Of a stretch of 64,000 bases of DNA, positions 29,597 to 45,560 are shown one piece after another. This DNA comes from Schlesneria sp. (GTDB lineage Bacteria > Planctomycetota > Planctomycetia > Planctomycetales > Planctomycetaceae). A program made the position numbers and the translations under genes. Numbering within the stretch: position 1 is the first letter of the stretch; the number at the start of each line of letters is the position of its first letter. Location of the stretch: positions 16,486-80,485 of the forward strand of contig JAQGHU010000093.1 in NCBI GenBank assembly GCA_028291515.1, written 5' to 3'. The notes below the pieces were generated by a model. The model saw nothing but the letters and a program-made list of their open reading frames with translations, ran no database searches and was not told the origin of the DNA.

Positions 29597-31051
29597 CTAC
29601 GCCACGACACCCTGAACGACGTTTCCAAACACATCGGTCAGCCGTTCGTCTCGACCTTGATGGAAGTAGCTCAGGCGTTCGTGATCGATCCCCAACAGAT
29701 GCAAAATTGTGGCGTGCAGATCGTGCAGGTGGACCTTGTCTTTGACCGCCTCAAATCCGAACTCGTCGGTTTCGCCGTAGGAAGTTCCTCCCTTCGCACC
29801 ACCACCCACCAGCCACATGCTGAAGCCATACGGATTGTGATTGCGGCCCGGTTCGCCTTTTCCTTCGCTGAATGGCATTCGGCCGAATTCGCCTCCCCAG
29901 ACAACCAGCGTTTCATCGAGCAACCCGCGACGCTCCAAGTCCGTCAACAGACCAGCAATCGGCAGATCGACCTCACCCGCATGTTGTCCATGATTCGTTT
30001 CAATGCTCTTGTGAGCATCCCAAGTCTCTTCCAGGTGTCCGCCGCCCGAATAAAGCTGCACAAACCGGACGCCCCGTTCGACCAGTCGCCGCGCGACCAG
30101 ACAATTGCGGCCAAACTCATCGGTCGGCTGCTTGCCAATCCCATACATGTCCTGAGTCGCTTTCGACTCCTTCGACAGATCGACTGCCTCGGGCGCTTCG
30201 GCCTGCATGCGAAACGCGAGTTCATACGAGTTGATGCGCGATGCCAGATCGCTTCCCCCCGGCCGAGCAGCCATGTGGGCATCGTTGAGTCTCGCCAGCA
30301 AATCAAGTTGCGAGCGTTGGGCGGCGCGATCGAGAAAGTCGGGGCCACGCAGATCAAGAATCGGATCGCCAACAGGTCGGAACAGCGTTCCCTGGTAGGT
30401 GGATGGCATGAAGCCGCTGGACCAGTTGGGCTGGCCGCTGATCGGCCCGCCGCGCTTGTCGAGAATCACAACATAACCGGGCAGACTTTCGTTTTCCGTC
30501 CCCAATCCATAAACCGCCCAACTCCCCAGTGACGGCCGACCGATAAAAGTCTTGCCCGTATTCATCGCCACCAGCGCGGACCCGTGAGCGTGGCTGTCCG
30601 TATGACAGGATTTGATCACCGCCAGTTTGTCGGCATGTTGCCGCACGTTTTCAAAGAAATCGGAAATCATCAGCCCTGATTGCCCGCCCGGTCGGAAGGG
30701 GCGAAATGACGGCGTTAGAAACCCAACCTTTCGGCCACCCGAGTTCGTAAACTTCTTGCCCTCCGGCAACGGTTGACCAGCCAGCTTTTCCAACAGCGGT
30801 TTGTGATCGAACGTGTCCACCTGACTCGGCGCACCATTCATCATCAGGAAAATGACGCTCTTCGCGCGACCAAACGTCGGCGACGGCTTCGCCATCAGCG
30901 GATTGACTGCCGCCTGCTCGCTTCCATAACCAACGCGTTCGAAGAATCCGTCTCGAGAAAGCAACCCCGTGAGTGCCAGCCCAGTAAAACCGGCTCCCAT
31001 GTCCCACACGAATTCGCGGCGAGTTTGACGGCAGGGAAATTGGGATGTCAT
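29597..31051 (-). CDS. DUF1501 domain protein (Tat-type leader)
   Basis: TRREF leader; AKSVIFLMMNGAPSQVDTFD, ARRLVERGVRFVQL, GEFGRMP, DLHATILHLLG. Confidence 0.92.
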   Translation of the reverse strand: MTSQFPCRQTRREFVWDMGAGFTGLALTGLLSRDGFFERVGYGSEQAAVNPLMAKPSPTFGRAKSVIFLMMNGAPSQVDTFDHKPLLEKLAGQPLPEGKKFTNSGGRKVGFLTPSFRPFRPGGQSGLMISDFFENVRQHADKLAVIKSCHTDSHAHGSALVAMNTGKTFIGRPSLGSWAVYGLGTENESLPGYVVILDKRGGPISGQPNWSSGFMPSTYQGTLFRPVGDPILDLRGPDFLDRAAQRSQLDLLARLNDAHMAARPGGSDLASRINSYELAFRMQAEAPEAVDLSKESKATQDMYGIGKQPTDEFGRNCLVARRLVERGVRFVQLYSGGGHLEETWDAHKSIETNHGQHAGEVDLPIAGLLTDLERRGLLDETLVVWGGEFGRMPFSEGKGEPGRNHNPYGFSMWLVGGGAKGGTSYGETDEFGFEAVKDKVHLHDLHATILHLLGIDHERLSYFHQGRDERLTDVFGNVVQGVVA

Positions 31052-31098
31052 GACTTAGTCCTTGTTCGATGCAATTCGCTGAATAGTTTCGGCATTTT

Positions 31099-32055
31099 TC
31101 AGTTCCCGTCGCTTTGCCCCCAGCGATATCCCAGCCCGGTGATCTTGTTGATCACACTGCTCACCGACGAATCATCTCGCAAAAGTTGGTTGAGGCGAGT
31201 CCGACCTTCATCGAAAGCAGGTTGTTCGCCAATGCTGCCGAGATGAAAGACAAGTTGGTCGACTTGCGCCAACTGAGCTGCCAGCAACTGCAGAAGCACC
31301 ATCAATGGCCGATTCCCGCCAAAAGCGCCACAACCCCAGAAGCCGGTATGGATCTCGACGGCAGACGTGGGTGACGACAAGACCGCTGCGCGGAATCCAC
31401 AGTAGGCTGCCTGCATGATTGATGTGACCTGAGCCAGCGTGTATCGCCCCTGGCCCACCGGAGCAGCGATAGCAATCAGATTCGTCAATGCTGGCGCAGG
31501 AAGGATTCGCAGCGCTTCGCGAATGGCTTCCGGCGATGCACTCTGGAAGCGGTTGCCGTAAAGTCCACGCGGTGCCGAATCGCTTGGAGCAGTGTCGATG
31601 AAGCAAACACGCTCCGCATTCTGTATCAAGACTGGCGTCGCTCCATCGCCATCGACAGTCATCGGATCGCGACCAGCGGCCGCCAGCGCTTCTCGTAAGC
31701 AGCTTAGAATTGGATGTTCCAAGACCTGCATTTCATCTTGTGCAAACAGACCGGAGCCATACGCAAAAAAGAGGCGCGGATCGGCAAAATTCAAATGCCA
31801 GGCCGAGTTCGTAGAAGGTGCGTAGTCAAAATAGCCCTGCTGAACGATGACTTCGCTGGCTCGAGATGGAATCGATTCCGGCAAGCCGCGCGGCTTCCAT
31901 TGTGAGTACTTCAAATGCCCGTGCGCTCGATAGCCTGCGGCCAGACACAAATCATAAACCAAGCGTTTGTGAGGATGCCGCAACACAGGTGGATACTGCT
32001 GCTGCTGCATCGCACTGTCGTAGTCTCGTGATTCCAGACAAATCGGATCGAACAT
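31099..32055 (-). CDS. PARG-like (poly-ADP-ribose glycohydrolase) macrodomain protein
   Basis: LNFAD...AQDEMQ resembles VDFAN...VQEE; IHTGFWGCGAFGGN resembles TGNWGCGAFGG. Confidence 0.7.
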   Translation of the reverse strand: MFDPICLESRDYDSAMQQQQYPPVLRHPHKRLVYDLCLAAGYRAHGHLKYSQWKPRGLPESIPSRASEVIVQQGYFDYAPSTNSAWHLNFADPRLFFAYGSGLFAQDEMQVLEHPILSCLREALAAAGRDPMTVDGDGATPVLIQNAERVCFIDTAPSDSAPRGLYGNRFQSASPEAIREALRILPAPALTNLIAIAAPVGQGRYTLAQVTSIMQAAYCGFRAAVLSSPTSAVEIHTGFWGCGAFGGNRPLMVLLQLLAAQLAQVDQLVFHLGSIGEQPAFDEGRTRLNQLLRDDSSVSSVINKITGLGYRWGQSDGN

Positions 32056-32057
32056 CT

Positions 32058-35000
32058 TCAGTCCACGTAGATGAATTCGTTGGTGTTCAACAGCACGTGA
32101 CACAACGAAGCCAGCGCCAGGAAGCGCGGGTCGCGCAACTGCTCGATCGATGATTGCAGACCGTAACGTTTCATCAGGTAACGATTGACGGCATCGCGTT
32201 CGTCGGTTTTCAGTTCCCGGTCATAGACAATCAACTCGGTAATGTCACCATGCCAGTACTCCCCATCAATATTTCCCTGCTGTCCGATAACATAAGGCCC
32301 CTTCAAATTGCGAGTACTCAACGGCGAACTGCGCGAGGCGAGATCGGTGCCGTTCTGTTGCACCACGGTCCCCGTTGCACCGCTTAGACCGGACAACAAG
32401 AACAGTTCCGAACGATGAGAGATCTGACCGACTCCGGAGAAGTCGTCGCTCAATCTCGCACCTTTCGTCCCGGTCATGCCAAAGAACAGACTGCTCCCCA
32501 CATTTCCAACTTCATTCCAGTTCGAAAAGATTTCGCGGTGCGCGATCGTTTCCGACTGATCACTCACGACGGCAAAGATCGCGAAAGCTTGCGATGTGAT
32601 TACTTGACCGGCCAGATGCAGAAACCTCTTCTGGCCGTCAAACTGCACTGACCAGCGTAGGGGCGGCCCATTTCTCACGTGCCGCGGTCGTTGCGATGCA
32701 ACTGGCTGACTCGCATGGTGATTCCGCCCCGACTGGTCTTTCCAACTGACAACGAGATCATCCTCATCACGAGTCACGCCCTTATCTGCTGAAAGGTGCA
32801 GTGCCATCCCTGCACGAGGCAATATGGAGTCTTGGGTGGATAATTGGGTTCGGCCGAAATGCGCCACCTGCCATTCGAAGTGCTGCCTGGCGTCGGCCAT
32901 CTCCTGATTCGACGGATCGCGGCCCAGAGCATACTGCCATGCCAGTCGGATCCGGCGATCGTCTTCGATGTCCGCACGTCCCTTTACCGAATAACCCTTG
33001 TTCATGATGGCTCCTGCAAGCAGCCCCACCTCTGGTTCCATGGCGCGTCGCGCCAAAGCCTGGCTTCGTTCGTGCGCGAACGCGTTATTCAGTAATGCCA
33101 AAGCTTGAGGTGCCACGGTCGATACCGGCCGCTGCACACAGGGCAGGGTGGTATCAGAGGAATCGAATGTTGTCATCAGCGGCGGCAACAGACTTCGCTG
33201 GGAAAACATATAGATCGCTCGCCGGCGCTGTTCCTCGGTGGGCGATGGCTTCCAAGCTCCCTCTTTTCGCGACAACCCCTCTAGTGCTTCGGCCTGGATC
33301 GTTGGCTTAAACCCCGGACCTGTCATTCGCGTATCCAAATCATCGCCCACAAACAGCAGCCGATCGCGCAGCGGTTCCGCTTCCAGCCGTCGCCGTTCGG
33401 CGCGCCACCACAACTGATTGCCGGAATCGCGTTGCGCGTACTCGTCCTGTTTCGGATGCAGCGACGATTGTCGGTACGTGGCACTCGTCACCAGCATTCG
33501 ATGCAGCCTCTTCAACGATGAGTAATGACTTGATGCAGCCGAAGCACCCGCTGTCGCTTCAGAAGCGAGCCAGTCCAGCAGTTCGGGATGAGTCGGCTTG
33601 TCGCCCGTAAACCCAAGGTTGTCCGCCGACCGGACCAACCCCATCCCGAAGTGATTCATCCACAGCCGATTAACCAGCACTCGCGGCGTTAACGGGTTCT
33701 TGCTGGCGGCAATCCATTCGGCCAGTTGTCGGCGGCGATGAGTCGTGCTGGCCCCCAATGGAGCTGGCTCTAACGGCTGGTTTAGAGTCGGAACGATCGA
33801 TAAGTGCGCCGGCTCGACCACTTCCTGTGGTTGCTTCGGCTCACCCTTGCGAAGCAATCGCAGAGGAGGGAGCTGTCGAATGTCTGTCCAACCCATCACA
33901 TCGAAACCCAGTTCATCCTTCGTGGGTCCACCGAGTAACTCGCGGCCACGGGGTTCGATGGCACCCGGCCAGAATGCGGCCGCCATCCGGTAGTAATCGG
34001 TTTGGGGAATCGGATCGAACTTGTGATCGTGACACCGCGCACACTTCACTGTCAGACTGAGGAACGCCGTCGATGTCACGTGAACCATGTCTTCCAGACG
34101 TTCGTGCTTGTACTCATCAGCATCGTTAGGTTCATCGTTCCAGGTTCCCAATCGAAGGAAGCCTGTCGCGATCACAGATGCTTCACTACGATCCGAGACC
34201 TCATCGCCTGCCAGTTGTTGCTCGATAAATCGATCGTAAGGCAAATCCTCATTGATCGCCTGCACAACCCAATCGCGATACTTCCACGCGAACGGCTTCT
34301 CCTGATCGCGTTCATAGCCACACGTGTCGGCATACCGGACAACATCCAGCCAATAGCGTCCCCAGCGTTCCCCGAAATGCGGCGACGCGAGCAGGCGATC
34401 GACGAGTCGTTCATAAGCGTCTGGACTCGAGTCACGTTCGAATTCTTGGATCTCTTCGTAGGTCGGGGGCAGTCCCAACAAATCGAACGCGATCCGTTTG
34501 ATCAGCGTCGCACGGCTAGCTGCGGGTGATGGCTGCATTTGAACAGCGTCTAACTTCGCTCGGATAAAGGCATCGATCGGCGACTTCGTATCCAACATGG
34601 CATTCGCCGGTATCGAAGGACGCCGCACTGGTTGTAATGACCACCAATCACGCCCGCCGCGGACTTCGGTCGTGGCTTCGTAAAGATCCAGCTTTCGCCC
34701 CTCCGGCCAGACCGCTCCCTCGGCGATCCACCCCTTCAGAGCATCGATTTCTGCGACAGTCAGCTTCTGCGACACACCTCGTTTCGGAGGGGGCATTTCC
34801 CCAGAAACGACTCGTTCCAGCAAATTACTGTGCTCGGGATCTTTCGCGATCACGGCGGGACCGCTTTCACCGCCCGCGGCGAGTGACGCTTTGTCGACAA
34901 GAACCAATTTGCCTGACGCATCTCGTTCGTTGTGACATTCCAGGCAGCGTTTGACGAAGATCATCGCCACGTCACGCGAGAACCGATCACCTGCACCAGC

Positions 35001-35072
35001 GTCGGCAAAGGCGCTGCCAGCCACGAGTTCGATCGCGATCAGTGACGCGAGAAAATGGAATCGCCCCAGCAT
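32058..35072 (-). CDS. Planctomycete cytochrome c / DUF1549 / DUF1553 protein with LamG-like insert
   Basis: CLECH and CARCHDHKFDPI; ERWGRYWLD; HPELLDWLA; PQALALLN; WKDQSGRNHH..GDITELIVYDREL insert. Confidence 0.92.
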   Translation of the reverse strand: MLGRFHFLASLIAIELVAGSAFADAGAGDRFSRDVAMIFVKRCLECHNERDASGKLVLVDKASLAAGGESGPAVIAKDPEHSNLLERVVSGEMPPPKRGVSQKLTVAEIDALKGWIAEGAVWPEGRKLDLYEATTEVRGGRDWWSLQPVRRPSIPANAMLDTKSPIDAFIRAKLDAVQMQPSPAASRATLIKRIAFDLLGLPPTYEEIQEFERDSSPDAYERLVDRLLASPHFGERWGRYWLDVVRYADTCGYERDQEKPFAWKYRDWVVQAINEDLPYDRFIEQQLAGDEVSDRSEASVIATGFLRLGTWNDEPNDADEYKHERLEDMVHVTSTAFLSLTVKCARCHDHKFDPIPQTDYYRMAAAFWPGAIEPRGRELLGGPTKDELGFDVMGWTDIRQLPPLRLLRKGEPKQPQEVVEPAHLSIVPTLNQPLEPAPLGASTTHRRRQLAEWIAASKNPLTPRVLVNRLWMNHFGMGLVRSADNLGFTGDKPTHPELLDWLASEATAGASAASSHYSSLKRLHRMLVTSATYRQSSLHPKQDEYAQRDSGNQLWWRAERRRLEAEPLRDRLLFVGDDLDTRMTGPGFKPTIQAEALEGLSRKEGAWKPSPTEEQRRRAIYMFSQRSLLPPLMTTFDSSDTTLPCVQRPVSTVAPQALALLNNAFAHERSQALARRAMEPEVGLLAGAIMNKGYSVKGRADIEDDRRIRLAWQYALGRDPSNQEMADARQHFEWQVAHFGRTQLSTQDSILPRAGMALHLSADKGVTRDEDDLVVSWKDQSGRNHHASQPVASQRPRHVRNGPPLRWSVQFDGQKRFLHLAGQVITSQAFAIFAVVSDQSETIAHREIFSNWNEVGNVGSSLFFGMTGTKGARLSDDFSGVGQISHRSELFLLSGLSGATGTVVQQNGTDLASRSSPLSTRNLKGPYVIGQQGNIDGEYWHGDITELIVYDRELKTDERDAVNRYLMKRYGLQSSIEQLRDPRFLALASLCHVLLNTNEFIYVD

Positions 35073-35378
35073 CGTGGCTCCAGTTGATTTAGCGCGTTGC
35101 GGATCCAGTTGCAGTTCTCAATATGATAGCGAAGCACGATTGCAGACCACCATCGACAATGGTCACAAGGATTCTATTGAGTGCAGCCGTTTGGTGGTCG
35201 TCAATTGAGGCCAGAAGCGGAGGTGTGCAGGCATCATCGGATTCAGTTTCCTTACGATTTGGCAGAATTTGTCAGTCCATGGCAGGGTTTTGGGGGTATT
35301 GGAAGATTTGCCCCTTGAATACAAGGGAAATCGCGAAAGGTACTGACAAATGCGAGCCTTCCTGACGTCGGACTCCCA

Positions 35379-35519
35379 GTTCGGCGCGGGTCTCTGACCC
35401 CGCCGAAACGTGTGACCGGAGGTCTCCTTTTCCCTGGCGCAGAAACAGCGCCTGAAAGTGCCCGGGACTGGAGACCTTCGGTCGGCGGTTTCGGCGGGGT
35501 CGGGAGACCCGCGCCGAAC
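35379..35519. repeat. REP/MITE-like long palindrome
   Basis: Arms GTTCGGCGCGGGTCTC..GACCCCGCCGAAAC..GACCGGAGGTCTCC and their near-perfect complement. Confidence 0.85.
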
Positions 35520-35820
35520 AAGAAGGGGCGCCGAACGAGGGCGATTGAGTTGTCATGCGAACCCATATGATAAGTGGGGTTGTGTGTTGTTGGGCCAAGG
35601 GGTTAGGCCGCCCCGCTCAGGTAGGAGGTGGGTGGCGTGAAATTTCTTCGTTGTCAACTGCGGAACAGGGACCTCTGATCTTCCGCTAAGAGAGCGGCCC
35701 AGAGGCGTGCCCGTTGGCTACGGTGCACCTGCGACTATCGTCGTGACCCTGATTGTCCGTTTTGTGGTGACCTGATCAAGACGATGTTTGGCAAACTTGG
35801 GAACTATCTTTGAAATTGTC

Positions 35821-35870
35821 ACTGACAAATTTTGACACCCCAGGACAGATTTGGACAATGGGGGACAAAA
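35821..35870 (+). promoter_or_regulatory. Five GACA boxes at exact 10-bp spacing
   Basis: GACA at 35824, 35834, 35844, 35854, 35864; function is inferred. Confidence 0.6.
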
Positions 35871-36066
35871 CAGCCCTGTTTTCGGCAGTTTTCCTCAAAA
35901 AAGTGCGTGTCTACTGACAGTTGATTTAGCGACTGCAAAGGTAGGCCTGAAAAGTGCAGGTAGGAGGTGCTGGCTCAGTGCGAAAGCACGGATGCACTTC
36001 CGACGTTGCTCGCTTACTGATAAAACACACAGTCAGTAACCACGGTGATTTGGGGGGAGGGCAGGG

Positions 36067-36840
36067 ATGCCGGATTCACAGAAATCTCGACGATTGGCAG
36101 TATCGCGCAGTCGGCGACTGACGATCGACGTCCTGCATTACAACCGCCGTGTCCCGACTTGTGCCCATGATCGGCGTTCTGACCTGAGCCGACTCGCAGA
36201 ATTTCGCACTCGATTACCCCGGCGTATTTCGTGGTCGTTACTCTTCATCAAAGCATTCGCACTGGTCGCACAGAAGTATCCGGTCCTCAGGCAGTCCTAC
36301 ATTAACTGGCTGTGGCCGCACGTGCTGGAACATCCCTACAGCGTCGCAATGCTCGCCACGCAGCGAGACCATCGTGGCGAACCGTGGCTATTCTGGTCGC
36401 GGTTTGTTCAGCCCGAGCAGCGATCGTTGGAGGAAATGCAGCACGCGCTGAATCAGTATCAGTCCGAGCCTGTCGAGAAGATCTTCCTGCAGCAGTGGCG
36501 GCTGAGCGGTCTGCCGACATTGCTTCGTCGCTGCTTCTGGGGCTGGACCCTGAATTTTGCTGGCTCGAAACGTGCCAAACGAGTCGGAACATTCTTTCTG
36601 TCGACGTTGGCGAGCAAGGGGGTCGAAATCCAAGATCCTCCCGCGTTTCTGACCAGCAATCTGACTTATGGTCCATTGGACGCCAATGGCTGCTGTCGTG
36701 TCACGCTCTCCTACGATCACCGCCTGATGGACGGTTCCACCGTTGCGGATTGCCTGATCGAACTGGAAGCGACCTTGAATGGTGCCATCGCCGACGAATT
36801 GGCAGAGATCATCGCAAAATCAGAACGAGCCGCGGCTTGA
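36067..36840 (+). CDS. Stand-alone 2-oxoacid dehydrogenase E2 / CAT-like acyltransferase catalytic domain
   Basis: GTFFLSTL, LTYGPL, VTLSYDHRLMDG (HxxxDG); no lipoyl domain. Confidence 0.75.
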   Translation: MPDSQKSRRLAVSRSRRLTIDVLHYNRRVPTCAHDRRSDLSRLAEFRTRLPRRISWSLLFIKAFALVAQKYPVLRQSYINWLWPHVLEHPYSVAMLATQRDHRGEPWLFWSRFVQPEQRSLEEMQHALNQYQSEPVEKIFLQQWRLSGLPTLLRRCFWGWTLNFAGSKRAKRVGTFFLSTLASKGVEIQDPPAFLTSNLTYGPLDANGCCRVTLSYDHRLMDGSTVADCLIELEATLNGAIADELAEIIAKSERAAA

Positions 36841-36891
36841 TCACATCAGGCGACTTCCGCAACCACCTCACGTTGAAGAAATGCTGACGCC

Positions 36892-37716
36892 ATGAAGGAT
36901 CTCAAGGGACGGACCGCGGTGATCACGGGTGCATCCGCGGGGTTGGGCGTGCGAGTCGCACGAGCCCTCGCGCGTGAAGGGATGAACCTCGTGCTGGCAG
37001 CTCGTTCCGCCGACGCATTAGATTCGGTCGCGACCGAGATGCGCGGGCTCGGCGTAAAAGCCCTCGTGGTCCCAACCGATGTCTCGGACGAAAGCCAATT
37101 GGTTCGATTGGTCGAGCGCACGATGACCGAGTTCGGCGCTATCGACGTGCTGGTCAACAACGCAGGGATCGAAGCATTTCGGTCGTACCACGAACTGGAC
37201 CCCAACGACATTCGCCGCACGATCGAAGTCAACCTGACCGCCACACTATTGCTGACTCGTTTCGTTCTGCCGCACATGATCCAGGCCCGGCGTGGCCACA
37301 TCGTCAACATGGCGTCGATCGCGGGCAAGCAGGGGCCAGCCTATGGAGCGGCCTACGGAGCTTCCAAGGCGGGAATGATTGCCTTCACGCAAGCACTGCG
37401 GGGCGAGTACCGCAGCAGAGGAATCAGTTCCTCGGCAATCTGCCCCGGCTTCGCCAATGATGGCGGCATTTACGAAGTGATGAAGCAACGGATCGGTCGA
37501 GGCGTCCCCTGGTACCTCGGATCCACAACGGCCGAAGCGGTCGCCCGCGCGGTCGTCAAATCGATCAAAGGGGACCGCCCCGACTTGATCGTAAACGTCC
37601 CGGCCCTGCGTCCAATCTTCACCTTCTGCCAAGCCTTCCCCAGACTCGGCGAATGGATCGTCCACAAGGTGACGCTGCGATTCCTGAAGCAAGCCGGCAC
37701 CAGCCACCGCGAATAG
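36892..37716 (+). CDS. Short-chain dehydrogenase/reductase
   Basis: TGASAGLG, VNNAG, YGASK. Confidence 0.92.
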   Translation: MKDLKGRTAVITGASAGLGVRVARALAREGMNLVLAARSADALDSVATEMRGLGVKALVVPTDVSDESQLVRLVERTMTEFGAIDVLVNNAGIEAFRSYHELDPNDIRRTIEVNLTATLLLTRFVLPHMIQARRGHIVNMASIAGKQGPAYGAAYGASKAGMIAFTQALRGEYRSRGISSSAICPGFANDGGIYEVMKQRIGRGVPWYLGSTTAEAVARAVVKSIKGDRPDLIVNVPALRPIFTFCQAFPRLGEWIVHKVTLRFLKQAGTSHRE

Positions 37717-37728
37717 CATCGCAAGAAC

Positions 37729-37820
37729 GTAGGTTATGCTTCAGCATAACTTTTCAGACTCACAGTCGACGCCATCAAATACCGCCGAAGACAAAGAAGT
37801 TATGCTGAAGCATAACCTAC
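37729..37820. repeat. GTAG-type REP doublet (REPIN-like)
   Basis: Perfect 24-bp inverted repeat GTAGGTTATGCTTCAGCATAACTT, each arm self-palindromic, between convergent genes. Confidence 0.85.
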
Positions 37821-37856
37821 ACAGAGCGGTGTCAGTCCGTGGCCAACTCTTCTTCG

Positions 37857-38696
37857 TCAAGCCGCGCGTCGTGCTTCGGCCTCACCGGCAACCGCCACCT
37901 TCTTACGTTTGCGACTGGCACGGTTGAGTAGATCCAGAACTCCCGGAGCCAGCCATTTCGACCAGGCCAGCAGATGGGCCAGTGGCCCGACAAGCTTCAT
38001 CCGCTTGTTGCGATAGATGCACCGAATCGCCGCTTTCGAAACAGCTTCGATCGAACAGCACAGCCAACGCGGCGGATGCGGCACCGACTTGTCGCTCTTC
38101 GCCGATGCACACGACTTGTAGAGGTTCGTGAGCACCGGCCCAGGACAGAGAGCACTCACACCTAATCCACGGCGGCCGTATTCAGCTCGAATCGCTTCTG
38201 TGAAACCAATCAAGCCAAACTTGCTCGTGTGATAGGCTGCAAAGCGGCCTCCGGCCACCAGTCCGCTGATGCTGCATACATTCAAGATATGAGCGTCTGG
38301 TCGTTCGAGCAGGATCGGCAATAGCTCACGGGTGATCTGGATCGGTGCGAGCAGATTGATCTTCATCAACCAGTCCCACTGAGCCGCCGTCATCGAATGC
38401 GTCGGACCGTAGTAAGCGACGCCGGCATTGTTGACGAGGATGTCGACGTGTCCCCATTGCTGCAGCATCTGGCTCAAGACTCGACTGATCTCGGCCGGCT
38501 GACTGAGGTCGCACCGCTCGCCAATCGCGCTCACACCAATCTGTTTTGCTTCGGCGACAACGCTCGACAGCCCAGCCTCATCGATATCCAGCAGATAGAG
38601 ATCGGCTCCTTCGCGTGCGAGTGCCAGCGCAATGCTGCGGCCAATCCCAGCAGCGGCACCTGTCACCAAAGCCTGCTTGTGCCGAATCGACTTCAT
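37857..38696 (-). CDS. Short-chain dehydrogenase/reductase
   Basis: TGAAAGIG, VNNAG, YHTSK; start moved to MKSIRHK. Confidence 0.92.
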   Translation of the reverse strand: MKSIRHKQALVTGAAAGIGRSIALALAREGADLYLLDIDEAGLSSVVAEAKQIGVSAIGERCDLSQPAEISRVLSQMLQQWGHVDILVNNAGVAYYGPTHSMTAAQWDWLMKINLLAPIQITRELLPILLERPDAHILNVCSISGLVAGGRFAAYHTSKFGLIGFTEAIRAEYGRRGLGVSALCPGPVLTNLYKSCASAKSDKSVPHPPRWLCCSIEAVSKAAIRCIYRNKRMKLVGPLAHLLAWSKWLAPGVLDLLNRASRKRKKVAVAGEAEARRAA

Positions 38697-38773
38697 TGTA
38701 CGCAGAACTCTCTTTCCACCAGGCGACATGGCAGTGCACGATTCTGATCGCGAAAAAGTTGAATGCTCGTAAA

Positions 38774-38857
38774 TGGGAGGGCGAGGCTCCTGCCGAGCCG
38801 CGCGTGTTATTGTGAGACCATCGACATGCGCGGCTCGGCAGGAGCCTCGCCCTCCCA
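38774..38857. repeat. GGAG-type REP doublet
   Basis: Perfect 30-bp inverted repeat TGGGAGGGCGAGGCTCCTGCCGAGCCGCGC. Confidence 0.9.
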
Positions 38858-38944
38858 AATACAAAATCACAGCCTTGCCGCGGACATCGAGCGATTGCCA
38901 CGTATTCAGCATGCAGAATCACGCACCATCGTTTGGTGTGATGA

Positions 38945-40396
38945 CTACCGCGAATTCGCCAATCGGACAATGGCCTTCTTCACGAAGTCTTCCAGGTGAT
39001 TCCAAGAAGAAACCAAGTTCGCCAGATCAGGATCCGATGTCACGGGTGGATTGTTGGTCGGCGGATTATTGACAGGTGGATTTGTTACCGGCGGTTTCGT
39101 CCCTGGTGGCGGTTCCATCCCATGCGGATAGGGAATCGGACCTTCGGGACCATGCACGGCATTCGAATACTGCAACTGGATCGGCACGTATCCGCTGCCG
39201 TCCGCGAGCGGGATTTCCATGAAGACGGAACTCAACTGCTTGGCTTCCGCGATCGGATAGTCGCCCACTTCATTTCCGCTGTCAGATGTCCAACCGAGGT
39301 ATCGTGATGGATCTGGCCCCATCCCGGCGGCCGCATCGCCGACATCGGGGTCGGTTCGAGCTTCTTGTAGTTCATGATAGAACGTGCCGACGACGTTCTT
39401 CCAGTTTTGATCGAAGACGGGAATCCCGTTCGTCGCGCCAGTCGATGAGTTGCGTTCCGAATAGACACCCACCGCGTAGTAAACGGTAACGTTGCCGACA
39501 TGGACTGACCCGTGATAGCCACCTAGCCCTCCGGTCGAATCTTCGGCTTCTTCATGAGGGACAGCCTTGTTCGACACCGGTGCTTGTGCCATCCCGGCGT
39601 TAGGGTCACCCAGGACCGATCCCTTGGGAAGCATGAAACAGAAGACCGTATTGGGCAGATCGTAACCAGCGAATGCGCCACTGCTATACAAGCCGCTAAC
39701 CTGGCGCTCCAAATCGGTTTTCGGAACGAACGTCGGCTTCCAACCCGACAGGAAGAACGATCCCTTGAAAGTGTTCTTGAGCGGCTGATTGTTGAAGTAC
39801 TGGCAGATGACATTATTCAAGTTCGCGTCAGTCATCGCCCCGGCCAGCGCCTTATCGATATTGCGCCAATCATCATTGAGCCAAGCGGCCTGGCCGCCGA
39901 CATACACATTGGCCCAGGTCAAATTTTGAATTGTCCGTCCACCCCGATACCGCAGGTCTTCGTTCGGTGACGGAGGCAGGCCATTCGCCAGGGCTCCGTT
40001 TTGCGAGGAATCCGCCGATGACGCTGAGGTATTGATCGTGAGTTTGCGAGGTTTCGCTCCGCCGGTCGACGGCAACTGAGCTTGTCGAGTCAGAAACGGC
40101 ATAGATCGACCGTCAATCATCTGATCGTTAGACGCCAGCATCGCCAACGGACGCACGCCACCATTCTGCGCCTGCATCGACGCATGCGGCGGCAACGTGG
40201 CAAACGGCAGGACTCGCACAGATGTCGTCGTCGGCGACATCATCGGTTGAGTTGCAATCGGAGCTTGCGATTGCGGTGCCCCAGTACGAGTCGGCGGAAC
40301 GTTGTACGAAGACGGTCCACCCATCGGACCGCTGCTACAACCCATGGTGAGCAACGCCAGCATGAAGCTCAACCGCATAGTAAACGTCCCTGTCAT
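38945..40396 (-). CDS. Lipoprotein, PHI-1/EXORDIUM-like domain with HExxE motif
   Basis: Lipobox TMGC; YRGG, GYHGS, HELQEARTDP, EVGD, IQLQYSN; Pro/Asn-rich linkers. Confidence 0.55.
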   Translation of the reverse strand: MTGTFTMRLSFMLALLTMGCSSGPMGGPSSYNVPPTRTGAPQSQAPIATQPMMSPTTTSVRVLPFATLPPHASMQAQNGGVRPLAMLASNDQMIDGRSMPFLTRQAQLPSTGGAKPRKLTINTSASSADSSQNGALANGLPPSPNEDLRYRGGRTIQNLTWANVYVGGQAAWLNDDWRNIDKALAGAMTDANLNNVICQYFNNQPLKNTFKGSFFLSGWKPTFVPKTDLERQVSGLYSSGAFAGYDLPNTVFCFMLPKGSVLGDPNAGMAQAPVSNKAVPHEEAEDSTGGLGGYHGSVHVGNVTVYYAVGVYSERNSSTGATNGIPVFDQNWKNVVGTFYHELQEARTDPDVGDAAAGMGPDPSRYLGWTSDSGNEVGDYPIAEAKQLSSVFMEIPLADGSGYVPIQLQYSNAVHGPEGPIPYPHGMEPPPGTKPPVTNPPVNNPPTNNPPVTSDPDLANLVSSWNHLEDFVKKAIVRLANSR

Positions 40397-40704
40397 GGCG
40401 AATATCCTGCGCAATCCATTGCGCGTGAAGACACGATCGCACTCACGCCGCCGCGTAAACGGCAGATTCTGCCGGTTGATAACAGATGCTCCAAACCCTG
40501 ACTAGCCCTTGTTGGAGCAGCCTGTTCAAACTTTTAAGGTAAGCAACTGCGATCCGACATAAATTCTTTCCAGCAAGGAACTTCGTCGTTACGCTGACCG
40601 CGTGCATATCGAGTCCAAACGAACTCAACACAGCAGCTCTGGTCGAGTGGTTATCCGATTCCGTCTTAAGCTTTCCGGTGATCGGACATTCAAAGTCTCG
40701 ACCG

Positions 40705-41751
40705 TCACGGAAAGAAATCCGCGATGACATCGCCAATCAATTTACTGGGCGAGACGGGAATACCACGCTGCTCGATCGATTTGATCGTCTCTTTGTACTT
40801 GAGGTTGTCTCCCTCCTTCATCTTCAGCGGTTCCTCCAGCGTCCCCTTGGCAGTCCTATTCCAGGCTTTGGCGAGTTCAGAGAACTGGACGGTCATTTCC
40901 AGGCCAGTCCCACCCACGGCTTTCATCGATATTGCTTCTGCCCCCGCCAACACCTCTCCCATCGGTCTTCCGTCCTTCACCAATTGGGCAAGCTTCGCTC
41001 GATACATATCAAAAGTCGTCACCGCCTCCTTGCTGTCCTCGGACGACAGCGGCACGACGATCACAAATTGATCGCGAATGCGAGTCAATTGAATCGATCG
41101 CTCGGTACTCGCTGTCTGCAACATCTTGAGCGAGGTCGCATCGAAGGGCAGAGTGCCGTCACTACGCTTTGGCTTGGGAGACTCGGTCACCCCAGCCATC
41201 AAATCGAGCGCATGAGATGTAGACTCCCGAAACTCGTCCCACGTCACCATTGGCTTCTTGGCGACCTTCGACTTGTCCAGTTGGCCCTCAATCGCGCCGG
41301 CTAGAGCCGAAAGCGATGCGACCGCAATTGCATTCATCGTCTCACCGGGAATCACCTCGGTGTGGTGATAACCCAGTCGACCATGTTCGTCCTGATAGAA
41401 TTCGCCGGGGATGATTCGAATCGAGTCGAAATCAATCGCCGCATCGGTCGTTATCGGATTAGAACGGGAAGAATCGAGATCAATCCATCGATACGAGTGG
41501 CCACCTGTTCGTTCGATGGCAGGCACGGTCAGGAACTCAATCGGCGCGATGATGATCGATTCCCGCCGTTTCCAGATCAACTGGACGTGGTCCAGATCAC
41601 TGGGCTTCGCACAATGGATGTTCGTCCACGAGTGCAGGTGAACAAACGAATCCTCTTTCGCCTCATAACGAACGAAGTCCGTATGCGTCCCGCGAACTCC
41701 ACACCCCGCGCAAACCAGAATGGGCAGCCAGAACCAGGATCGAAGTTTCAT
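40705..41751 (-). CDS. Hypothetical lipoprotein
   Basis: MKLRSWFWLPILVCAGC lipobox; 348 aa. Confidence 0.7.
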   Translation of the reverse strand: MKLRSWFWLPILVCAGCGVRGTHTDFVRYEAKEDSFVHLHSWTNIHCAKPSDLDHVQLIWKRRESIIIAPIEFLTVPAIERTGGHSYRWIDLDSSRSNPITTDAAIDFDSIRIIPGEFYQDEHGRLGYHHTEVIPGETMNAIAVASLSALAGAIEGQLDKSKVAKKPMVTWDEFRESTSHALDLMAGVTESPKPKRSDGTLPFDATSLKMLQTASTERSIQLTRIRDQFVIVVPLSSEDSKEAVTTFDMYRAKLAQLVKDGRPMGEVLAGAEAISMKAVGGTGLEMTVQFSELAKAWNRTAKGTLEEPLKMKEGDNLKYKETIKSIEQRGIPVSPSKLIGDVIADFFP

Positions 41752-41784
41752 CAAATTTCTCCAACAGATTGATGCCTGTTTCCA

Positions 41785-42479
41785 GCACTTTTCAGGCCTA
41801 CCTTTGCAGTCGCTCAAACACTGTCAGTAAACATGCACTTTTTTGAGGAAAACTGCCAAAAATAGGGTTGTTTTGTCCCCCATTGTCAAAAGTTGTCCTC
41901 CAGTGTCAAAATTTGTCAGTGATAATTTCGAACAAAGATCCGAAGTTTGCCAAACATCGTCTTGATCAGCACACCACAAACGGGACAATCGTCTTCACGA
42001 CGATCGTCGCAGGTGCACCGTAACCAACGGGCACGCCTCTGGGCCGCTCTCTTAGCGGAAGGTCAGAGGTTCCTGTTCCTCTGTTGATAACGAAGAAGAG
42101 CGCGCTACCCACCCTCTTTCCTGAGCGGGGCGGTGTCAGCCCCTGACCCAAACACACACAACCCCACTCGCCATGCGGCAGTCGCGCTGGCCCGTCCAGT
42201 TCGGAACTGACAGCACGAGCAAAGGAGAATATGACCCCATGACAACCCATCATCACACCACAGATCAAGTCCTGATCGCCAACTTGGCCTCGAACCTCAC
42301 ACAGGCAATCTCAAGCTTTCCACTCTCCGCGACTTCGCGTCTTCGCGTGAGAAAATCTTCCACCCCCTCAAAACCCTGCCATGGACTGACAAACTCTGCC
42401 AAATCGTAAGGAAACAGAGCCCAGTGATGCCTGCATCCCTTCTCTTCTGCCCTCAATTAACCACCACGAAACGACTGCA
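41785..42479 (-). repeat. Copy 2 (inverted) of the long intergenic element
   Basis: Block B 41785-42168 and block A 42353-42479 match copy 1; the spacer between blocks differs. Confidence 0.9.
41871..41920 (-). promoter_or_regulatory. Five TGTC boxes at exact 10-bp spacing
   Basis: TGTC at 41874, 41884, 41894, 41904, 41914; function is inferred. Confidence 0.6.
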
Positions 42480-42584
42480 ACCACGTTCGGCTTCCGCCAA
42501 TCGACTAATTGCGGCCGAGCGAAGAGCAGGGTACAAGACATTCACTGCTGAATTAGTCTCACCTTTAAATCCCCAGGCCTCCAC

Positions 42585-45560
42585 ATGTTTGATCCGTACC
42601 GTAAGTGGTTGGGAATTCCGCCGAAGGATCAACCCCCAAACCATTATCGCTTGCTGGGGGTTGAGCTTTTCGAGAGTGATCTGGATGTGATCGAGGGAGC
42701 CGCCGAACGGCAGATGAATTTCGTCCGGCAGTATCAATCGGGTGAGTATGCGACCGCCGCAGCCAAGATCTTGAACGAGTTGGCAATTGCCCGTTTGTGC
42801 CTGTTGAAACCAGCGACAAAAACGGCCTACGACAAAAAACTGCGATCGGACCAAGCTCGACTCTCCGCTGCTGAGCAGCAGTTTTCTGATGTCGCGTTTG
42901 ACGATCTGCAGCCAGCCCCCAGAAAGAGAACTCGCAAGCCAAAGCCCGTATCCGCAAACCAATCGCTGCTCATCGGCGGTGGGATCGCAGCACTAATCAT
43001 CGTGCTGGCGGTCGTCATGCTTCCCCGTGGACGACGAAATCCGTCAGTCGACCAATCGAGCACGATCACTGCTGCGACTCCGGCCCCGAGCATCGAAAAA
43101 CCAACGCCGCCAGCCAAAATCGATCCGCCGTCACCAGATTCATTGTTGTGGACAGAGCCAAAGCTTGTTGCCGAACGAGCAGGGAATCCGATCGATCTGA
43201 TGAAATCAGTGGACATCGCTCGCGATGTCGCGCTGGGTGAATGGAAGCAAACGGCAACGGCGTTGATTGCCGCCCCGCATAGCCGTTTGTATGTGCCAGG
43301 AAAACTTCCAGACGACTATCAGATTAACCTTGTCGCACGCCGACTCGACGGAACCCAAGGATTGTTCGTGGGATTCATGATGGCCGGCCGTCAAGGAGTG
43401 GCGATCGTCGATGCATGGGGTTCAACAGTCAGCGGCCTGTATGTCGACGGCCGTGAAGTCAACGACAACTCAACAACCTTTCGAAGCAAGCCTCTGGCAG
43501 ATCATACGATTCAAATCGCGATTACCATTCATCCGGGCCATTTTCACATGGCCGTGGACGGGAAGACGATCACCAACTGGCACGGAAATCCAGAGCAACT
43601 GTCACTGTTTTTTGGTCTGGGCAGCCGCGAGTCTCTCTTTTTCGCCACTGCCGATTCCGGCTTCGTCATCGAATCGGCAACGCTGGTTCCCATCAAACCC
43701 GAGCCGCCCTATCCACGGCCCGACCGTCTAACAGATTCAGTTGATGTTCAGTCGCTGATCGATCTGGATCGTGATACGCAACGTGGGATCTGGGGCGCTA
43801 ACAAGGGAAAGATCTCCAGTCCCGAAGGACTGGGACAGGTCTGCCTGCCAGTGATGGTCCCCGAGGAATACACACTGTCGACGAAGGTCTTACGTCCGGA
43901 ATCCGCCGGCGGTGAACCGACAGTCATGTTCGGACTGATTGCCGGTCAATCGCGATGCCGCATTACCTTGAAGAGCGACGAAGGAGTGGCACTGGACATG
44001 ATCGATGGGCGTCGCTGGAATGAAAACGGGACGCGATTGGAGGTCCCATTCTGCCGTCCCGGTGTTCCTGCTCAGGTCGATTTCACAGTGACAAAGCAGG
44101 GCGTACGAATGGAAGTCGATGGAAAAACGTTCATTGATTGGCAAGGGGATTTTTGGCGGCTGTCGTCGCCTGATGAGTGGGCCACAGCAGATCATCGCAA
44201 GCTTTTTATCGCGACGAAGAGTCATTTCCAGTTCAGCGACATCAAGTTAGGTCCACCGAAGCCAGCGAGACCGTTTCCTCGACACGACAAAATTACGACA
44301 GACAGACCTCTTGATCTGCTTTCGATCATCGACCCCGTCCGTGATGCGAATCAGGGAACCTGGACGTCCGAAGGCCACGTGCTGCGGACAATGGCCGATC
44401 CAGCATTTGAATACTCAAAACTTGCGATTCCAGTCGATGTCCCGGAGGAATATCTCCTCACGATGCAAGTCGCCAGGGAAGCAGGCGGGCCTCACAACGA
44501 CGAGGCACTGTGTTTATTGCTACCTTTTGGGAATTCCCGAGCAGGGCTTGTGATCGATGGCCATCACTCGCAATTTACCGGCTTCGACCTCAGCAAATCC
44601 GACTTCGCCTCCAATCCGACAACTTTCAAAGGAACGGTCATTTCTCCGGACGCGGCCACCGAGATTGAAATTCAGGTGAGAAAAAATGGGGTCAAAATCA
44701 GCAGTGCCGGACGACAGATTGTCGATTGGAGCGGGAATCCAGCAAACTTCACCGTACAACCCCGTCACGCAGGTCCCGGCCGCGGAATCAGTCTGGGAGC
44801 ATGGAAGCAACGGTTTCGATTCGAGAAGTTGGAAATCCGCGCGCTCCCTCCCACAAGTCTCGCGGCCATTCCTGCGTTGCCTGCCGATGGGAATCTTTTG
44901 CCAGTCATTGACATCGCTCGTGATGTTCGAGAAGGGACATGGACAATCGGCGCCGAGGGGCTCCAATCGCCTGACCAGTACATGATCTCAAGATTGCGGA
45001 TTCCATTCACTCCACCGAGCAAGTACGCTCTGGAACTGATGGTCGAGCGTCGTGGGGGTGTCAGCGATCTGCTAATCGGACTGCCAATCGATGGACGTCC
45101 CTGCCTGGTCGCTTTCGATGGGTCTTTTGGGAAACGGGCGGGTCTGGAACTGGTAGATGGTCACTGGATCTACGACGCCGCCAATTTCACTGCGCGAGGA
45201 ACGGATTCTCACCTGCTGCCACAAGGTCAGCGTGTCAACGTAACCTGCTTCGTGCTTCCCGACACGCTGGTCGTGAACTGTGGCGATCGAGAGATCGTTC
45301 GTTGGCACGGAGATGCTCGGCGACTTTCACTCGCCCATCGCTATTTGCCGCCAAACTATTCAGACGAGGATCAAAAACTATTGTGGTTGGGAAGTTGGGC
45401 AACCAACTTTCGAATCACAAACCTGATTTTACGGCCGCTAACCACCGACGAGATCACAGAGCTCTCAACAAGCTTCACTGGCGTCTCCCCCACCACATCA
45501 CAATCGGCAGTCCCGCTGACGACGCGGGCTAAAATGACTGAGAGTTCCAATCGCAATTAA
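42585..45560 (+). CDS. Bitopic membrane protein: J-domain-like N-terminus and repeated beta-rich domains
   Basis: DPYRKWLG..ARLCLLKPATKTAYD (no HPD); one TM; four repeats starting DL...D..RD...G.W. Confidence 0.8.
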   Translation: MFDPYRKWLGIPPKDQPPNHYRLLGVELFESDLDVIEGAAERQMNFVRQYQSGEYATAAAKILNELAIARLCLLKPATKTAYDKKLRSDQARLSAAEQQFSDVAFDDLQPAPRKRTRKPKPVSANQSLLIGGGIAALIIVLAVVMLPRGRRNPSVDQSSTITAATPAPSIEKPTPPAKIDPPSPDSLLWTEPKLVAERAGNPIDLMKSVDIARDVALGEWKQTATALIAAPHSRLYVPGKLPDDYQINLVARRLDGTQGLFVGFMMAGRQGVAIVDAWGSTVSGLYVDGREVNDNSTTFRSKPLADHTIQIAITIHPGHFHMAVDGKTITNWHGNPEQLSLFFGLGSRESLFFATADSGFVIESATLVPIKPEPPYPRPDRLTDSVDVQSLIDLDRDTQRGIWGANKGKISSPEGLGQVCLPVMVPEEYTLSTKVLRPESAGGEPTVMFGLIAGQSRCRITLKSDEGVALDMIDGRRWNENGTRLEVPFCRPGVPAQVDFTVTKQGVRMEVDGKTFIDWQGDFWRLSSPDEWATADHRKLFIATKSHFQFSDIKLGPPKPARPFPRHDKITTDRPLDLLSIIDPVRDANQGTWTSEGHVLRTMADPAFEYSKLAIPVDVPEEYLLTMQVAREAGGPHNDEALCLLLPFGNSRAGLVIDGHHSQFTGFDLSKSDFASNPTTFKGTVISPDAATEIEIQVRKNGVKISSAGRQIVDWSGNPANFTVQPRHAGPGRGISLGAWKQRFRFEKLEIRALPPTSLAAIPALPADGNLLPVIDIARDVREGTWTIGAEGLQSPDQYMISRLRIPFTPPSKYALELMVERRGGVSDLLIGLPIDGRPCLVAFDGSFGKRAGLELVDGHWIYDAANFTARGTDSHLLPQGQRVNVTCFVLPDTLVVNCGDREIVRWHGDARRLSLAHRYLPPNYSDEDQKLLWLGSWATNFRITNLILRPLTTDEITELSTSFTGVSPTTSQSAVPLTTRAKMTESSNRN

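Follow-up and report, generated by a model that had tools for sequence, protein, structure and literature searches.

The window, a 64,000-nt stretch of a Schlesneria genome (G000), contains two diverged copies of a non-coding repeat, A and B, in inverted orientation around a 5.8-kb block of genes. This arrangement raises the question of whether the pair goes back to a duplication or an inversion, or whether the two copies are members of a mobile element that may act on the adjacent genes.

The inverted repeat pair and its surroundings

The inverted pair named in the original prediction was recovered by a repeat search of the window, which returned arms of 278 nt (35644-35921/41820-42097, 88% identity) and 115 nt (35182-35296/42365-42479, 86% identity) and further arms at 35573-35628/42113-42168 and 35922-35967/41775-41820. 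Pairwise alignment of copies A and B showed two conserved blocks with 86-88% identity and non-homologous spacers of 263 and 184 nt. REP-like palindromes are nested in the spacer of copy A, where the palindrome is unrelated to the element, and in that of a copy on contig C21, in line with the predicted repeat remnants. Both copies occupy divergent intergenic gaps, also as predicted, and their four ends lie 31-110 nt from start codons (110 nt at 35072, ~100 nt at 36067, 31 nt at 41751 and ~105 nt at 42585). The 5' terminal inverted repeat (TIR) of copy A falls inside a 33-nt gap of the orthologous copy in the sister species (G044). The 3' terminal repeat is absent from copies A and B, both of which stop ~20 nt past the internal TIR-like motif. 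The features of the locus are listed in Table 1.

Table 1. Features of the two repeat copies and their neighbouring genes, in window coordinates.
Feature	Position	Strand	Remarks
PSCyt1/DUF1549/DUF1553 gene	32058..35072	-	start faces b1 end of copy A, 110 nt off
Copy A	35179..35960	+	long subfamily; 3' end truncated or of an alternative type; ortholog in sister species G044
5' TIR, copy A	35179..35202	+	GAGTGCAGCCGTTTGGTGGTCGTC; family consensus GGGTGCAGTCGTTTCGTGGTGGTC
Block b1, copy A	35240..35300	+	most conserved block; three G(G/T)CAG boxes, 10 bp apart
Unrelated REP-like palindrome in copy A spacer	35396..35501	.	missing from G044 ortholog; common genus-wide
Long-subfamily core, copy A	35670..35743	+	nearly invariant; nested hairpin, then CCGTTGGYTACGG hairpin, then small CGAC/GTCG hairpin
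Block b2, copy A	35821..35920	+	GACA boxes at 35824, 35834, 35844, 35854 and 35864, plus 35916
Predicted sigma70-like promoter, copy A	35832..35859	+	TTGACA-16-GACAAT, 10/12 matches; toward gene at 36067
Internal TIR-like motif, copy A	35928..35941	+	AGCGACTGCAAAGG; 3' terminus of some family members
257-aa gene	36067..36840	+	downstream of b2 end of copy A
348-aa gene	40705..41751	-	no Pfam match; start 31 nt from 3' end of copy B
Copy B	41782..42481	-	long subfamily; no counterpart in sister species G044
Block b2, copy B	41822..41921	-	contains phased GACA array
Predicted sigma70-like promoter, copy B	41882..41909	-	TTGACA-16-GACAAT; toward ATG at 41751
Core hairpins, copy B	42011..42069	-	conserved
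Block b1, copy B	42361..42420	-	
5' TIR, copy B	42458..42481	-	GGTTGCAGTCGTTTCGTGGTGGTT
991-aa gene	42585..45560	+	start faces b1 end of copy B, ~105 nt off

A Pfam search of the neighbouring genes in the window revealed no transposase, in agreement with the original prediction, and no recombinase gene was present near copies A and B. The flanks of copy A are unrelated to those of copy B. An origin of the repeat from paralogous flanking genes was rejected, since the 1004-aa and 991-aa genes are unrelated. Paralogous DUF1553 genes make up only 5 of 38 b1-side genes, and the neighbours of the elements are functionally unrelated (recA, groEL, aspartokinase, DUF1553 genes, kinases, sulfatase). Across 26 copies there was no codon periodicity and no third-position excess of variation, and frame-breaking indels were present in 6 of the 26, so that a hidden peptide in the core was rejected. 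Rfam 15 gave no match at gathering thresholds in the whole window and just two chance-level matches (E = 0.5) in the region 35000-36100; a known RNA family was rejected on this ground.

A dispersed repeat family and its probable mobility

A genome-wide blastn search of G000 returned 53 b1 blocks, 51 b2 blocks and 46 complete b1..b2 units, the others being split at contig ends. The family thus comprises about 55 dispersed, intergenic copies in this genome, and the pair is no two-copy feature. It is present in 4 of 46 genomes of the genus, with at least 40 copies in the sister species. Each unit is built from two blocks, b1 (48 nt) on the 5' side and b2 (100 nt) on the 3' side, the latter with five GACA boxes at an exact spacing of 10 bp. 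The order and orientation of b1 and b2 are constant across copies, with a gap of 256-590 nt between them, and the b1..b2 units span 400-750 nt. Two subfamilies could be distinguished, a short one of ~440 nt and a long one of ~700-950 nt; the CCGTTGGYTACGG hairpin of the long-subfamily core is common to the short subfamily. A minimal member of ~250 nt keeps b1-like and b2-like blocks only. At the other extreme, the inter-block region accommodates insertions of 100-800 nt, and one 1.5-kb copy contains an inserted, unrelated small ORF.

The phased array is specific to the family: its 4-box form occurs 87 times, every time within a family member, and five control 4-mers gave no occurrence. The b1-like sequences and 3-box GACA arrays found outside the family were at chance level or proved to be family members. 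In metagenomes, a scan with the exact b1 pattern gave no match and a degenerate phased-GACA pattern hit only unrelated GACAA-type microsatellites. A scan of viral contigs for the terminal repeat gave no match.

Full-length long copies are bounded by an imperfect 24-bp TIR, GGGTGCAGTCGTT...AACGACTGCACCC, in which 13 of 13 positions match perfectly and 20 of 24 match overall. The same TIR also borders unrelated elements of ~610 bp in the assembly G016, and one of these sister elements (L189) is flanked by a perfect 7-bp duplication, GCAAACC. Within the family, a perfect candidate 7-bp target duplication was found at C5:185579 (CTTCATT/CTTCATT). The flanks of L044 (GCAGATC/GCAGGTT) match at 5 of 7 positions and its empty site has a single GCAGGTT; the flanking repeat of C46 also matches at 5 of 7 positions. 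At most copies the target duplications are decayed or unrecognisable.

Comparison with relatives provided the empty sites that had been proposed as a test. The sister species has an ortholog of copy A at the same site and lacks copy B, whose site is taken up by an unrelated 78-nt sequence. Another Schlesneria assembly carries elements at L044 and L048, two sites that are empty in G000. Two of these three filled-versus-empty sites are not clean: copy B shows a replacement of 78 nt, and L048 one of 14 nt. Gene order and orientation in the sister species are collinear with the window. Because this species is collinear and simply lacks copy B, no inversion was involved, and the inverted pair therefore arose from two independent insertions. 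The proposal of an invertible block or a past inversion thus finds no support, and no recombinase gene lies nearby. At orthologous sites, b1 is conserved at 94.9% and b2 at 91.9%, versus 85.1% for the remainder of the element (z of about -5.4 and -4.7, calculated from the orthologous-site counts). This higher conservation of the two blocks could reflect gene conversion among copies instead of function.

No autonomous parent or transposase was found beside the TIRs or GACA arrays, or enclosed by them, in G000, G012, G016 and G043, draft assemblies that may hide one. In G043 the terminal repeat occurs at 8 contig ends; there was no DDE_Tnp_1 match in this assembly, and its two rve genes do not adjoin the terminal repeat. 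Partnerless terminal-repeat matches in G016 and G012 were rejected as autonomous elements, since they adjoin ordinary host genes or are solo 29-mers. A search for an autonomous partner through pairs of terminal repeats gave chance-level matches or family members only.

The part of the original prediction that proposed a non-autonomous mobile element is supported by the ~55 dispersed copies, the TIRs, the candidate 7-bp duplications, the absence of an ORF, the presence/absence difference between sister species and the occurrence in 4 of 46 genomes. The family is a new, MITE-like family with an unusual size, a modular build and an orientation rule. It has the copy number, insertion polymorphism and TIRs of MITEs, it encodes no transposase and no conserved ORF, and no parent insertion sequence was found. 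In size, the short subfamily (~440 nt) lies within the usual MITE limit of ~500 bp and the long one (700-950 nt) above it.

Orientation and predicted regulatory signals

About 90% of copies have their b1 end toward a gene start. Between co-directional genes, b1 points toward the downstream start codon in 16-18 cases versus 0-2 in the opposite orientation (p = 3e-5 to 1e-3), and all four non-orthologous copies in other assemblies obey the same rule. Among the gene contexts of the copies, divergent pairs are enriched and convergent pairs are depleted.

Consensus scanning identified an outward-pointing TTGACA-16-GACAAT in copies A and B, and essentially all 46 copies have it at this position of b2. 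From this motif we infer a near-consensus sigma70 promoter in b2 that fires out of the 3' end of the element. The gene beyond this end of copy B, encoding 348 aa, is intact, with a dN/dS of 0.34 relative to the sister species and an identical ATG in both species. As only 31 nt separate copy B from this conserved ATG, the gene is presumably transcribed from inside the element, and the copy B promoter most likely replaced its native promoter. At the b1 end, the same scanning revealed no consistent outward promoter. A sigma54 or ECF promoter in b1, considered by eye, was rejected because spacing and key dinucleotides do not fit. Thus, of the bidirectional promoter cassette that had been proposed, a promoter is supported at the b2 end only, with its conserved sigma70-like site, and consensus scanning gives no support for bidirectionality.

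The core of the short subfamily consists of an A-run, a GC hairpin of 18-20 bp with compensatory variants, and then TTGGTTACGG. Read on the opposite strand, the hairpin is followed by U5-8, which by consensus prediction is terminator-like.

Origin of the pair and relation to known elements

The explanation that we consider probable is that copies A and B were inserted independently and belong to a non-autonomous, MITE-like family of large modular repeats derived from a DNA transposon. A full-length long element would consist of the 24-bp imperfect TIR, block b1 some 60 nt in from the 5' end, a variable spacer able to host other repeats, the conserved hairpin core, b2 with its 10-bp phased GACA array and a copy-variable 3' part, which in complete copies would end in an inverted copy of the terminal repeat. 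A putative transposase acting in trans would have moved the elements and made the 7-bp target duplications, and the family would have spread in this way to about 55 intergenic sites in G000 and at least 40 in the sister species. Survival of insertions, or their targeting, would be nearly restricted to sites with a start codon facing the b1 end at a distance of about 20-130 nt. Where the element lies between co-directional genes, transcripts of the upstream one would therefore come in through b2, and in the short subfamily they would run into the hairpin and U-tract terminator ahead of b1 and the following gene. The inverted layout of A and B would then be a by-product of both copies occupying divergent promoter regions and no record of an inversion.

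Alternatively, although we hold this only tentatively, the element could be a host-domesticated regulatory or architectural module, with b1 (three G(G/T)CAG boxes) and b2 (five or six GACA boxes in opposite orientation) serving as binding-site arrays for one DNA-binding protein, for example a winged-helix response regulator or a nucleoid-associated protein. Such a module would place about 50 unrelated genes under one common control or shield adjacent transcription units from one another. Mobility would only account for how it spread in the past, and the reading is compatible with the insertion of mobile elements. The preferential conservation of b1 and b2 at orthologous sites, the exact and family-specific phasing, the placement of b1 next to gene starts and the retention of just these two blocks in the minimal member argue for it. 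However, no protein is known to bind the boxes, the neighbouring genes share no function, and either gene conversion or selection at the level of the element, for binding of a transposase, can account for the conservation; subterminal box arrays in opposite orientation at the two ends also resemble transposase-binding sites. It appears rather unlikely that the family is a domesticated, orientation-locked insulator-plus-promoter cassette in which one protein binds the phased arrays and couples or insulates ~50 unrelated genes, including recA, groEL and aspartokinase.

We regard as unlikely that each copy is a small-RNA gene, expressing a structured non-coding RNA that ends at the core hairpin, with b1 or b2 as its promoter. 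In its favour, some 60 nt of the core hardly vary among 26 long copies, without a codon signal; the short subfamily and the divergent copies C63 and C106 keep the hairpin architecture with different stems; and the short-subfamily hairpin lies between an A-run and U-rich sequence like a two-way terminator. Against this, no Rfam family was matched even at E<=10, the sole consensus promoter is directed away from the core, and the inter-block region takes large insertions. The motifs shared by b1 and b2 are non-nested and therefore form no simple long-range helix; pairing between the blocks was rejected on this basis, and the minimal copy is without compensatory changes. A simple inverted segmental duplication, or flipping of the 5.8-kb block between arms of about 0.7 kb whose 86-88% identity would in principle be enough for homologous recombination, is highly improbable given the many copies elsewhere, the unrelated flanks, the absence of a nearby recombinase and the same gene order and orientation in a sister species that has only copy A.

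As a MITE-like family, the Schlesneria repeats can be compared with bacterial MITEs with regulatory cargo, namely the Correia elements of Neisseria, MITEAba12 of Acinetobacter and the QMITEs of Coxiella (PMC10969869, PMC6382973). Like these, they are non-coding, multi-copy and intergenic, have TIRs and short target duplications (candidate ones here), and vary in presence between relatives. Outward-facing promoters, which are predicted here, are likewise found in those MITEs, sometimes with protein-binding sites or terminator-like hairpins, and those MITEs are mobilised in trans. At 440-950 nt, the Schlesneria family is much larger than such elements, which measure about 100-300 nt. It further differs in its two conserved subterminal blocks, which are not inverted copies of each other, its variable middle, its 10-bp phased GACA array, the near-absolute rule that one particular end faces the start codon, and the lack of a known parent insertion sequence.

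Mosaic intergenic repeats include the BIMEs of E. coli and the pneumococcal BOX, RUP and SPRITE elements (PMC10969869). These share with the Schlesneria family the modular combination of conserved blocks and the clustering and nesting of different repeat families, and SPRITE shares its terminator-like hairpins. BIMEs and BOX have no TIRs or target duplications, whereas the Schlesneria family has a clear 13/24-bp terminal repeat, one that is common to other small elements in the genus. A third comparison concerns Tn7, Mu, Tn402/Tn5053 and the IS21 family, whose ends combine short TIRs with multiple subterminal transposase-binding sites. As in those ends, the arrays of repeated motifs are opposite at the two ends and differ between left and right in site number and spacing. 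The binding sites of these transposons are about 19-22 bp long and their duplications 5 bp (4-8 bp in IS21), whereas the Schlesneria family has boxes of 4-5 bp every 10 bp, and no matching transposase or ATPase genes were found.

The promoters, terminators and mobile repeats of planctomycetes are, to our knowledge, hardly described. In practical terms, the family causes breaks in assemblies, at contig ends, and could lead searches for inversions or duplications astray. It also offers about 100 natural test cases in two sister species, in which a predicted, portable near-consensus sigma70 promoter is joined, in the short form, by what is predicted to be a textbook intrinsic terminator. The insertion of copy B, at least, is recent and appears to have supplanted the native promoter of a gene. 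For bacterial MITEs it is unusual that b1 faces the start codon so strictly; this rule suggests either that insertion is promoter-targeted and orientation-specific or that there is strong selection on the effect of each end on its neighbours, and both possibilities are testable. If the insulator-plus-promoter cassette were real, its insertion would be directed to promoter regions with a fixed orientation, or selection would keep it there, and in both cases it would amount to mobile promoter rewiring in Planctomycetes.

An inverted pair within a dispersed family

The inverted pair was recovered by a repeat search as four collinear inverted arm pairs (82-88% identity) joining 35182-35967 to 41775-42479. 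Pairwise alignment of copy A and copy B gave two conserved blocks, the 5' block b1 and the 3' block b2, separated by non-homologous spacers. Each copy was found in a divergent intergenic gap with start codons 31-110 nt from all four ends, and on these points the original prediction was borne out. The flanking genes were defined from an ORF listing, Pfam and a dicodon gene caller trained on the window's own genome, which reproduced the expected window genes. The two large outer genes showed no relationship to each other. Inside the pair, the gap separating the convergent SDR genes contains two perfectly matched 24-nt inverted arms (GTAGGTTATGCTTCAGCATAACTT / AAGTTATGCTGAAGCATAACCTAC) around a 44-nt loop, which may act as a terminator in both directions or as a palindromic site for protein binding.

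Features of the inverted pair and its surroundings (window positions)
Feature	Coordinates	Strand	Remark
Segment absent from the sister species	31073-32059		
PARG-like ORF	31099-32103		
PSCyt1/DUF1549/DUF1553 gene	32058-35072	-	flanks copy A
Copy A	35179-35960	+	long subfamily
b1 search block	35240-35300		in copy A
REP-like repeat	35396-35501		
b2 search block	35815-35925		in copy A
257-aa gene	36067-36840	+	flanks copy A
SDR gene	36892-37716	+	
24-nt inverted repeat	37729-37820		between SDR genes
SDR gene	37857-38912	-	
REP-like repeat	38769-38862		
348-aa gene	40705-41751	-	flanks copy B
Copy B	42481-41782	-	long subfamily
991-aa gene	42585-45560	+	flanks copy B

Genome-wide blastn of the assembly (8.59 Mb in 119 contigs; the window is C64:16486-80485) returned 53 b1 and 51 b2 matches, extending the duplication well beyond a pair. 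These formed 46 b1/b2 pairs of constant order and orientation; the gap measured 256-590 nt in all but a single pair, where it reached 1382 nt. Blocks lacking a partner were mostly at contig ends, evidence that the assembly breaks at the family repeat. Two subfamilies were distinguished: a short one of ~440 nt, conserved over most of its length, and a long one that includes copies A and B. Block b2 carries five GACA boxes spaced exactly 10 bp apart. Four-box GACA arrays number 87 genome-wide, every one of them inside the family, and five control tetramers matched for base composition gave 0 such arrays. Block b1 has three G(G/T)CAG boxes, also at 10-bp spacing, and within them the b2 core motif appears as its reverse complement. 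A diverged minimal member of ~250 nt (C25:112400-112660) has kept only b1-like and b2-like blocks.

The short-subfamily core consists of an A5-8 run, an 18-20 bp GC-rich hairpin and TTGGTTACGG. The distal stem varies among copies with compensating changes, and the divergent copies on C63 and C106 have other stem sequences in an unchanged architecture. Read on the opposite strand, the hairpin is followed by U5-8 and has, by its sequence, the form of a canonical intrinsic terminator. The long-subfamily core forms ~60-nt nested hairpins that are almost invariant in 26 copies, and a small CCGT-TGGYT-ACGG hairpin is common to both subfamilies. No Rfam family matched. A hidden peptide in the long core is unlikely, as the variation among the 26 copies showed no codon periodicity and 6 of them carry frame-breaking indels.

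Other repeats share these intergenic regions. At least two further families of palindromic REP-like repeats (GACCCCGCCGAAAC.../...GTTTCGGCGGGGTC, and GGGAGGGCGAGGCTCCTGCCGAGCCGCGC with its inverted copy) are scattered in this genome and the genus; besides the window, they were seen at L190 and at C21:102100-102200. They insert into element spacers and beside elements, giving repeat-rich intergenic regions that are most evident around short copies. Upstream of many short copies are further modules common to several loci (e.g., C80:181946, C104:12775 and C109:159935), namely CCAAGGTCGCCAAGACCTTGGGCG...CACATCGACTTCGCCCAATCTCTTGGCGAGATTGGCTACG, repeated GCATGACACAAC motifs and a segment with GTGCAGTCGGA that resembles the terminal repeat. 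One member (C21:100806-102329; ortholog L055) has a spacer insert of ~0.8 kb, also kept in the sister assembly, in which a REP palindrome is accompanied by a small ORF on the reverse strand whose product, judged by eye, looks like a helix-turn-helix protein.

Termini and insertion history

Twenty long copies were aligned together with their flanks. Conservation begins at GGGTGCAGTCGTTTCGTGGTGGTC, ~60 nt upstream of b1, and about seven copies retain a 3' terminal module ending in ...CCACCAATGAACGACTGCACCC; the two ends form a terminal inverted repeat (TIR) that is perfect over 13 bp and imperfect over 20/24. The remaining long copies, A and B included, stop before this module, either at a TIR-like motif inside the element (AGCGACTGCAAAGG) or ~20 nt beyond it. 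Candidate 7-bp target duplications were found at C5:185579 (CTTCATT/CTTCATT), on C46 (CAGGCGA/CAGGTCA) and at L044, a copy in another Schlesneria assembly (GCAGATC/GCAGGTT), where the empty site in the window's genome has one GCAGGTT.

The family's terminal repeat (GGGTGCAGTCGTTnnnTGGTGG) is also found elsewhere in the genus. In G016 it forms the ends of unrelated ~610-bp elements that have neither b1 nor b2, one of which has a perfect 7-bp duplication (GCAAACC), and in G012 it is present as solo 29-mers. The terminal repeat therefore seems to mark a transposition system at work in Schlesneria, with the b1/b2 family as one of its putative non-autonomous passengers. No transposase was found adjoining terminal-repeat copies in the assemblies searched, all of which are drafts and may hide one. 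In G043, an assembly of 100 contigs from which the b1/b2 family is absent, a 22-nt terminal repeat (GGGTGCAGTCGTTAATTGGTGG) was located exactly at eight contig ends (C1, C27, C47, C53, C55, C56, C73 and C76). This pattern indicates a multi-copy element of high identity with its interior unassembled beside its ends, possibly the autonomous IS.

An exact-pattern scan for b1 with one genome per species found it only in three Schlesneria assemblies, and among 46 genus genomes the only family carriers were the window's own, G044, G011 and G016. G044 represents a sister species (~88% nucleotide identity, dS ~0.33-0.64) with at least 40 copies, and there the whole interval from the DUF1553 gene through the 991-aa gene is collinear with the window. 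The copy A site is occupied there, by a copy without 33 nt spanning the 5' terminal repeat and without the 98-nt REP-like spacer palindrome. Copy B is missing, with 78 nt of unrelated sequence in place of 41782-42479. Conversely, the sites of L044 and L048, both in another Schlesneria assembly, are empty in the window's genome, one being a clean empty site and the other having 14 nt of replaced sequence. Copies A and B are therefore best read as independent insertions of different ages. The suggestion that the enclosed block could flip or had once inverted gained no support, the collinear sister locus lacking copy B and giving no sign of inversion; more distant relatives retain synteny of the two central genes only and are uninformative on this point.

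The same comparison revealed that the PARG-like gene, flanked by the DUF1553 gene and that gene's downstream partner, is absent from G044 exactly to the nucleotide. Homology jumps from 30000-31072 directly to 32060 onward (L031 2046 to 2048), and hence either a lineage-specific insertion in the window's genome or a precise loss in G044 is implied.

Orientation toward genes and a promoter-like site

On the b1 side, 38 of 43 copies have a neighboring gene whose start faces the element. Divergent contexts meet this rule automatically and the proper test lies in co-directional ones, where b2 pointed toward the upstream stop and b1 toward the downstream start in 16-18 cases versus 0-2, the counts varying with the shortest gene admitted (binomial p = 3e-5 to 1e-3). 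Of all copies, ~45% lay in divergent regions, which make up 28% of intergenic bases, and 7-12% in convergent regions, which make up 18%. Four copies in other assemblies without an ortholog in the window's genome, two of them demonstrably recent, follow the same rule. Long copies typically have their 5' end at a distance of 16-127 nt from the start codon. The bias is restricted to the b1 end, the b2 end being split 22 to 21, and reflects either promoter-targeted oriented insertion or selection on each end's effects. It is too strong for replication-strand effects, and segmental duplication was rejected because the neighboring genes cover diverse functions (recA, groEL, aspartokinase, kinases, a sulfatase) and include only five paralogous DUF1553 genes.

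A promoter-like site, TTGACA-16-GACAAT (10/12 matches), lies within b2 of copies A and B and faces out of the 3' end; in a scan of 46 copies it held an equal relative position in essentially all. The same scan revealed no consistent outward promoter at the b1 end. The original prediction, which offered a mobile promoter cassette or a non-autonomous element, was largely right, but its "bidirectional" part was not upheld.

The 348-aa gene is intact, with an ATG shared by both species and a dN/dS of 0.34. Only 31 nt separate this ATG from the end of copy B, which leaves space for a ribosome-binding site and not for a promoter, and transcription should therefore begin inside the element or traverse it. 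The -10 hexamer of the copy B site ends at 41882, ~130 nt upstream of the ATG and in the correct direction. From this anatomy, the b2 site is the obvious candidate to drive the gene, and the native promoter probably lay in the 78 nt seen in G044.

Conservation after insertion and relation to known elements

Eight orthologous copy pairs were compared between the two species, with gap positions excluded. Identity was 94.9% for b1 (468 aligned positions), 91.9% for b2 (864) and 85.1% for the rest of the element (3585), with ~83% in the immediately adjacent element ends and 90-92% in the mostly coding flanks. From the identity counts, z against the rest of the element was approximately -5.4 for b1 and -4.7 for b2. 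This excess conservation fits an in-place function of both blocks; it could also stem from gene conversion among the ~55 similar copies.

Correia elements, MITEAba12 and SPRITE/BOX mosaics (PMC10969869, PMC6382973) come nearest to the Schlesneria family, which differs from them in size, in its two non-symmetrical conserved subterminal blocks, in the exact 10-bp phasing of its boxes and in its strict orientation toward start codons. The kind of element (non-autonomous, TIR-bounded and intergenic, with putative regulatory cargo) is known; the family itself is new.
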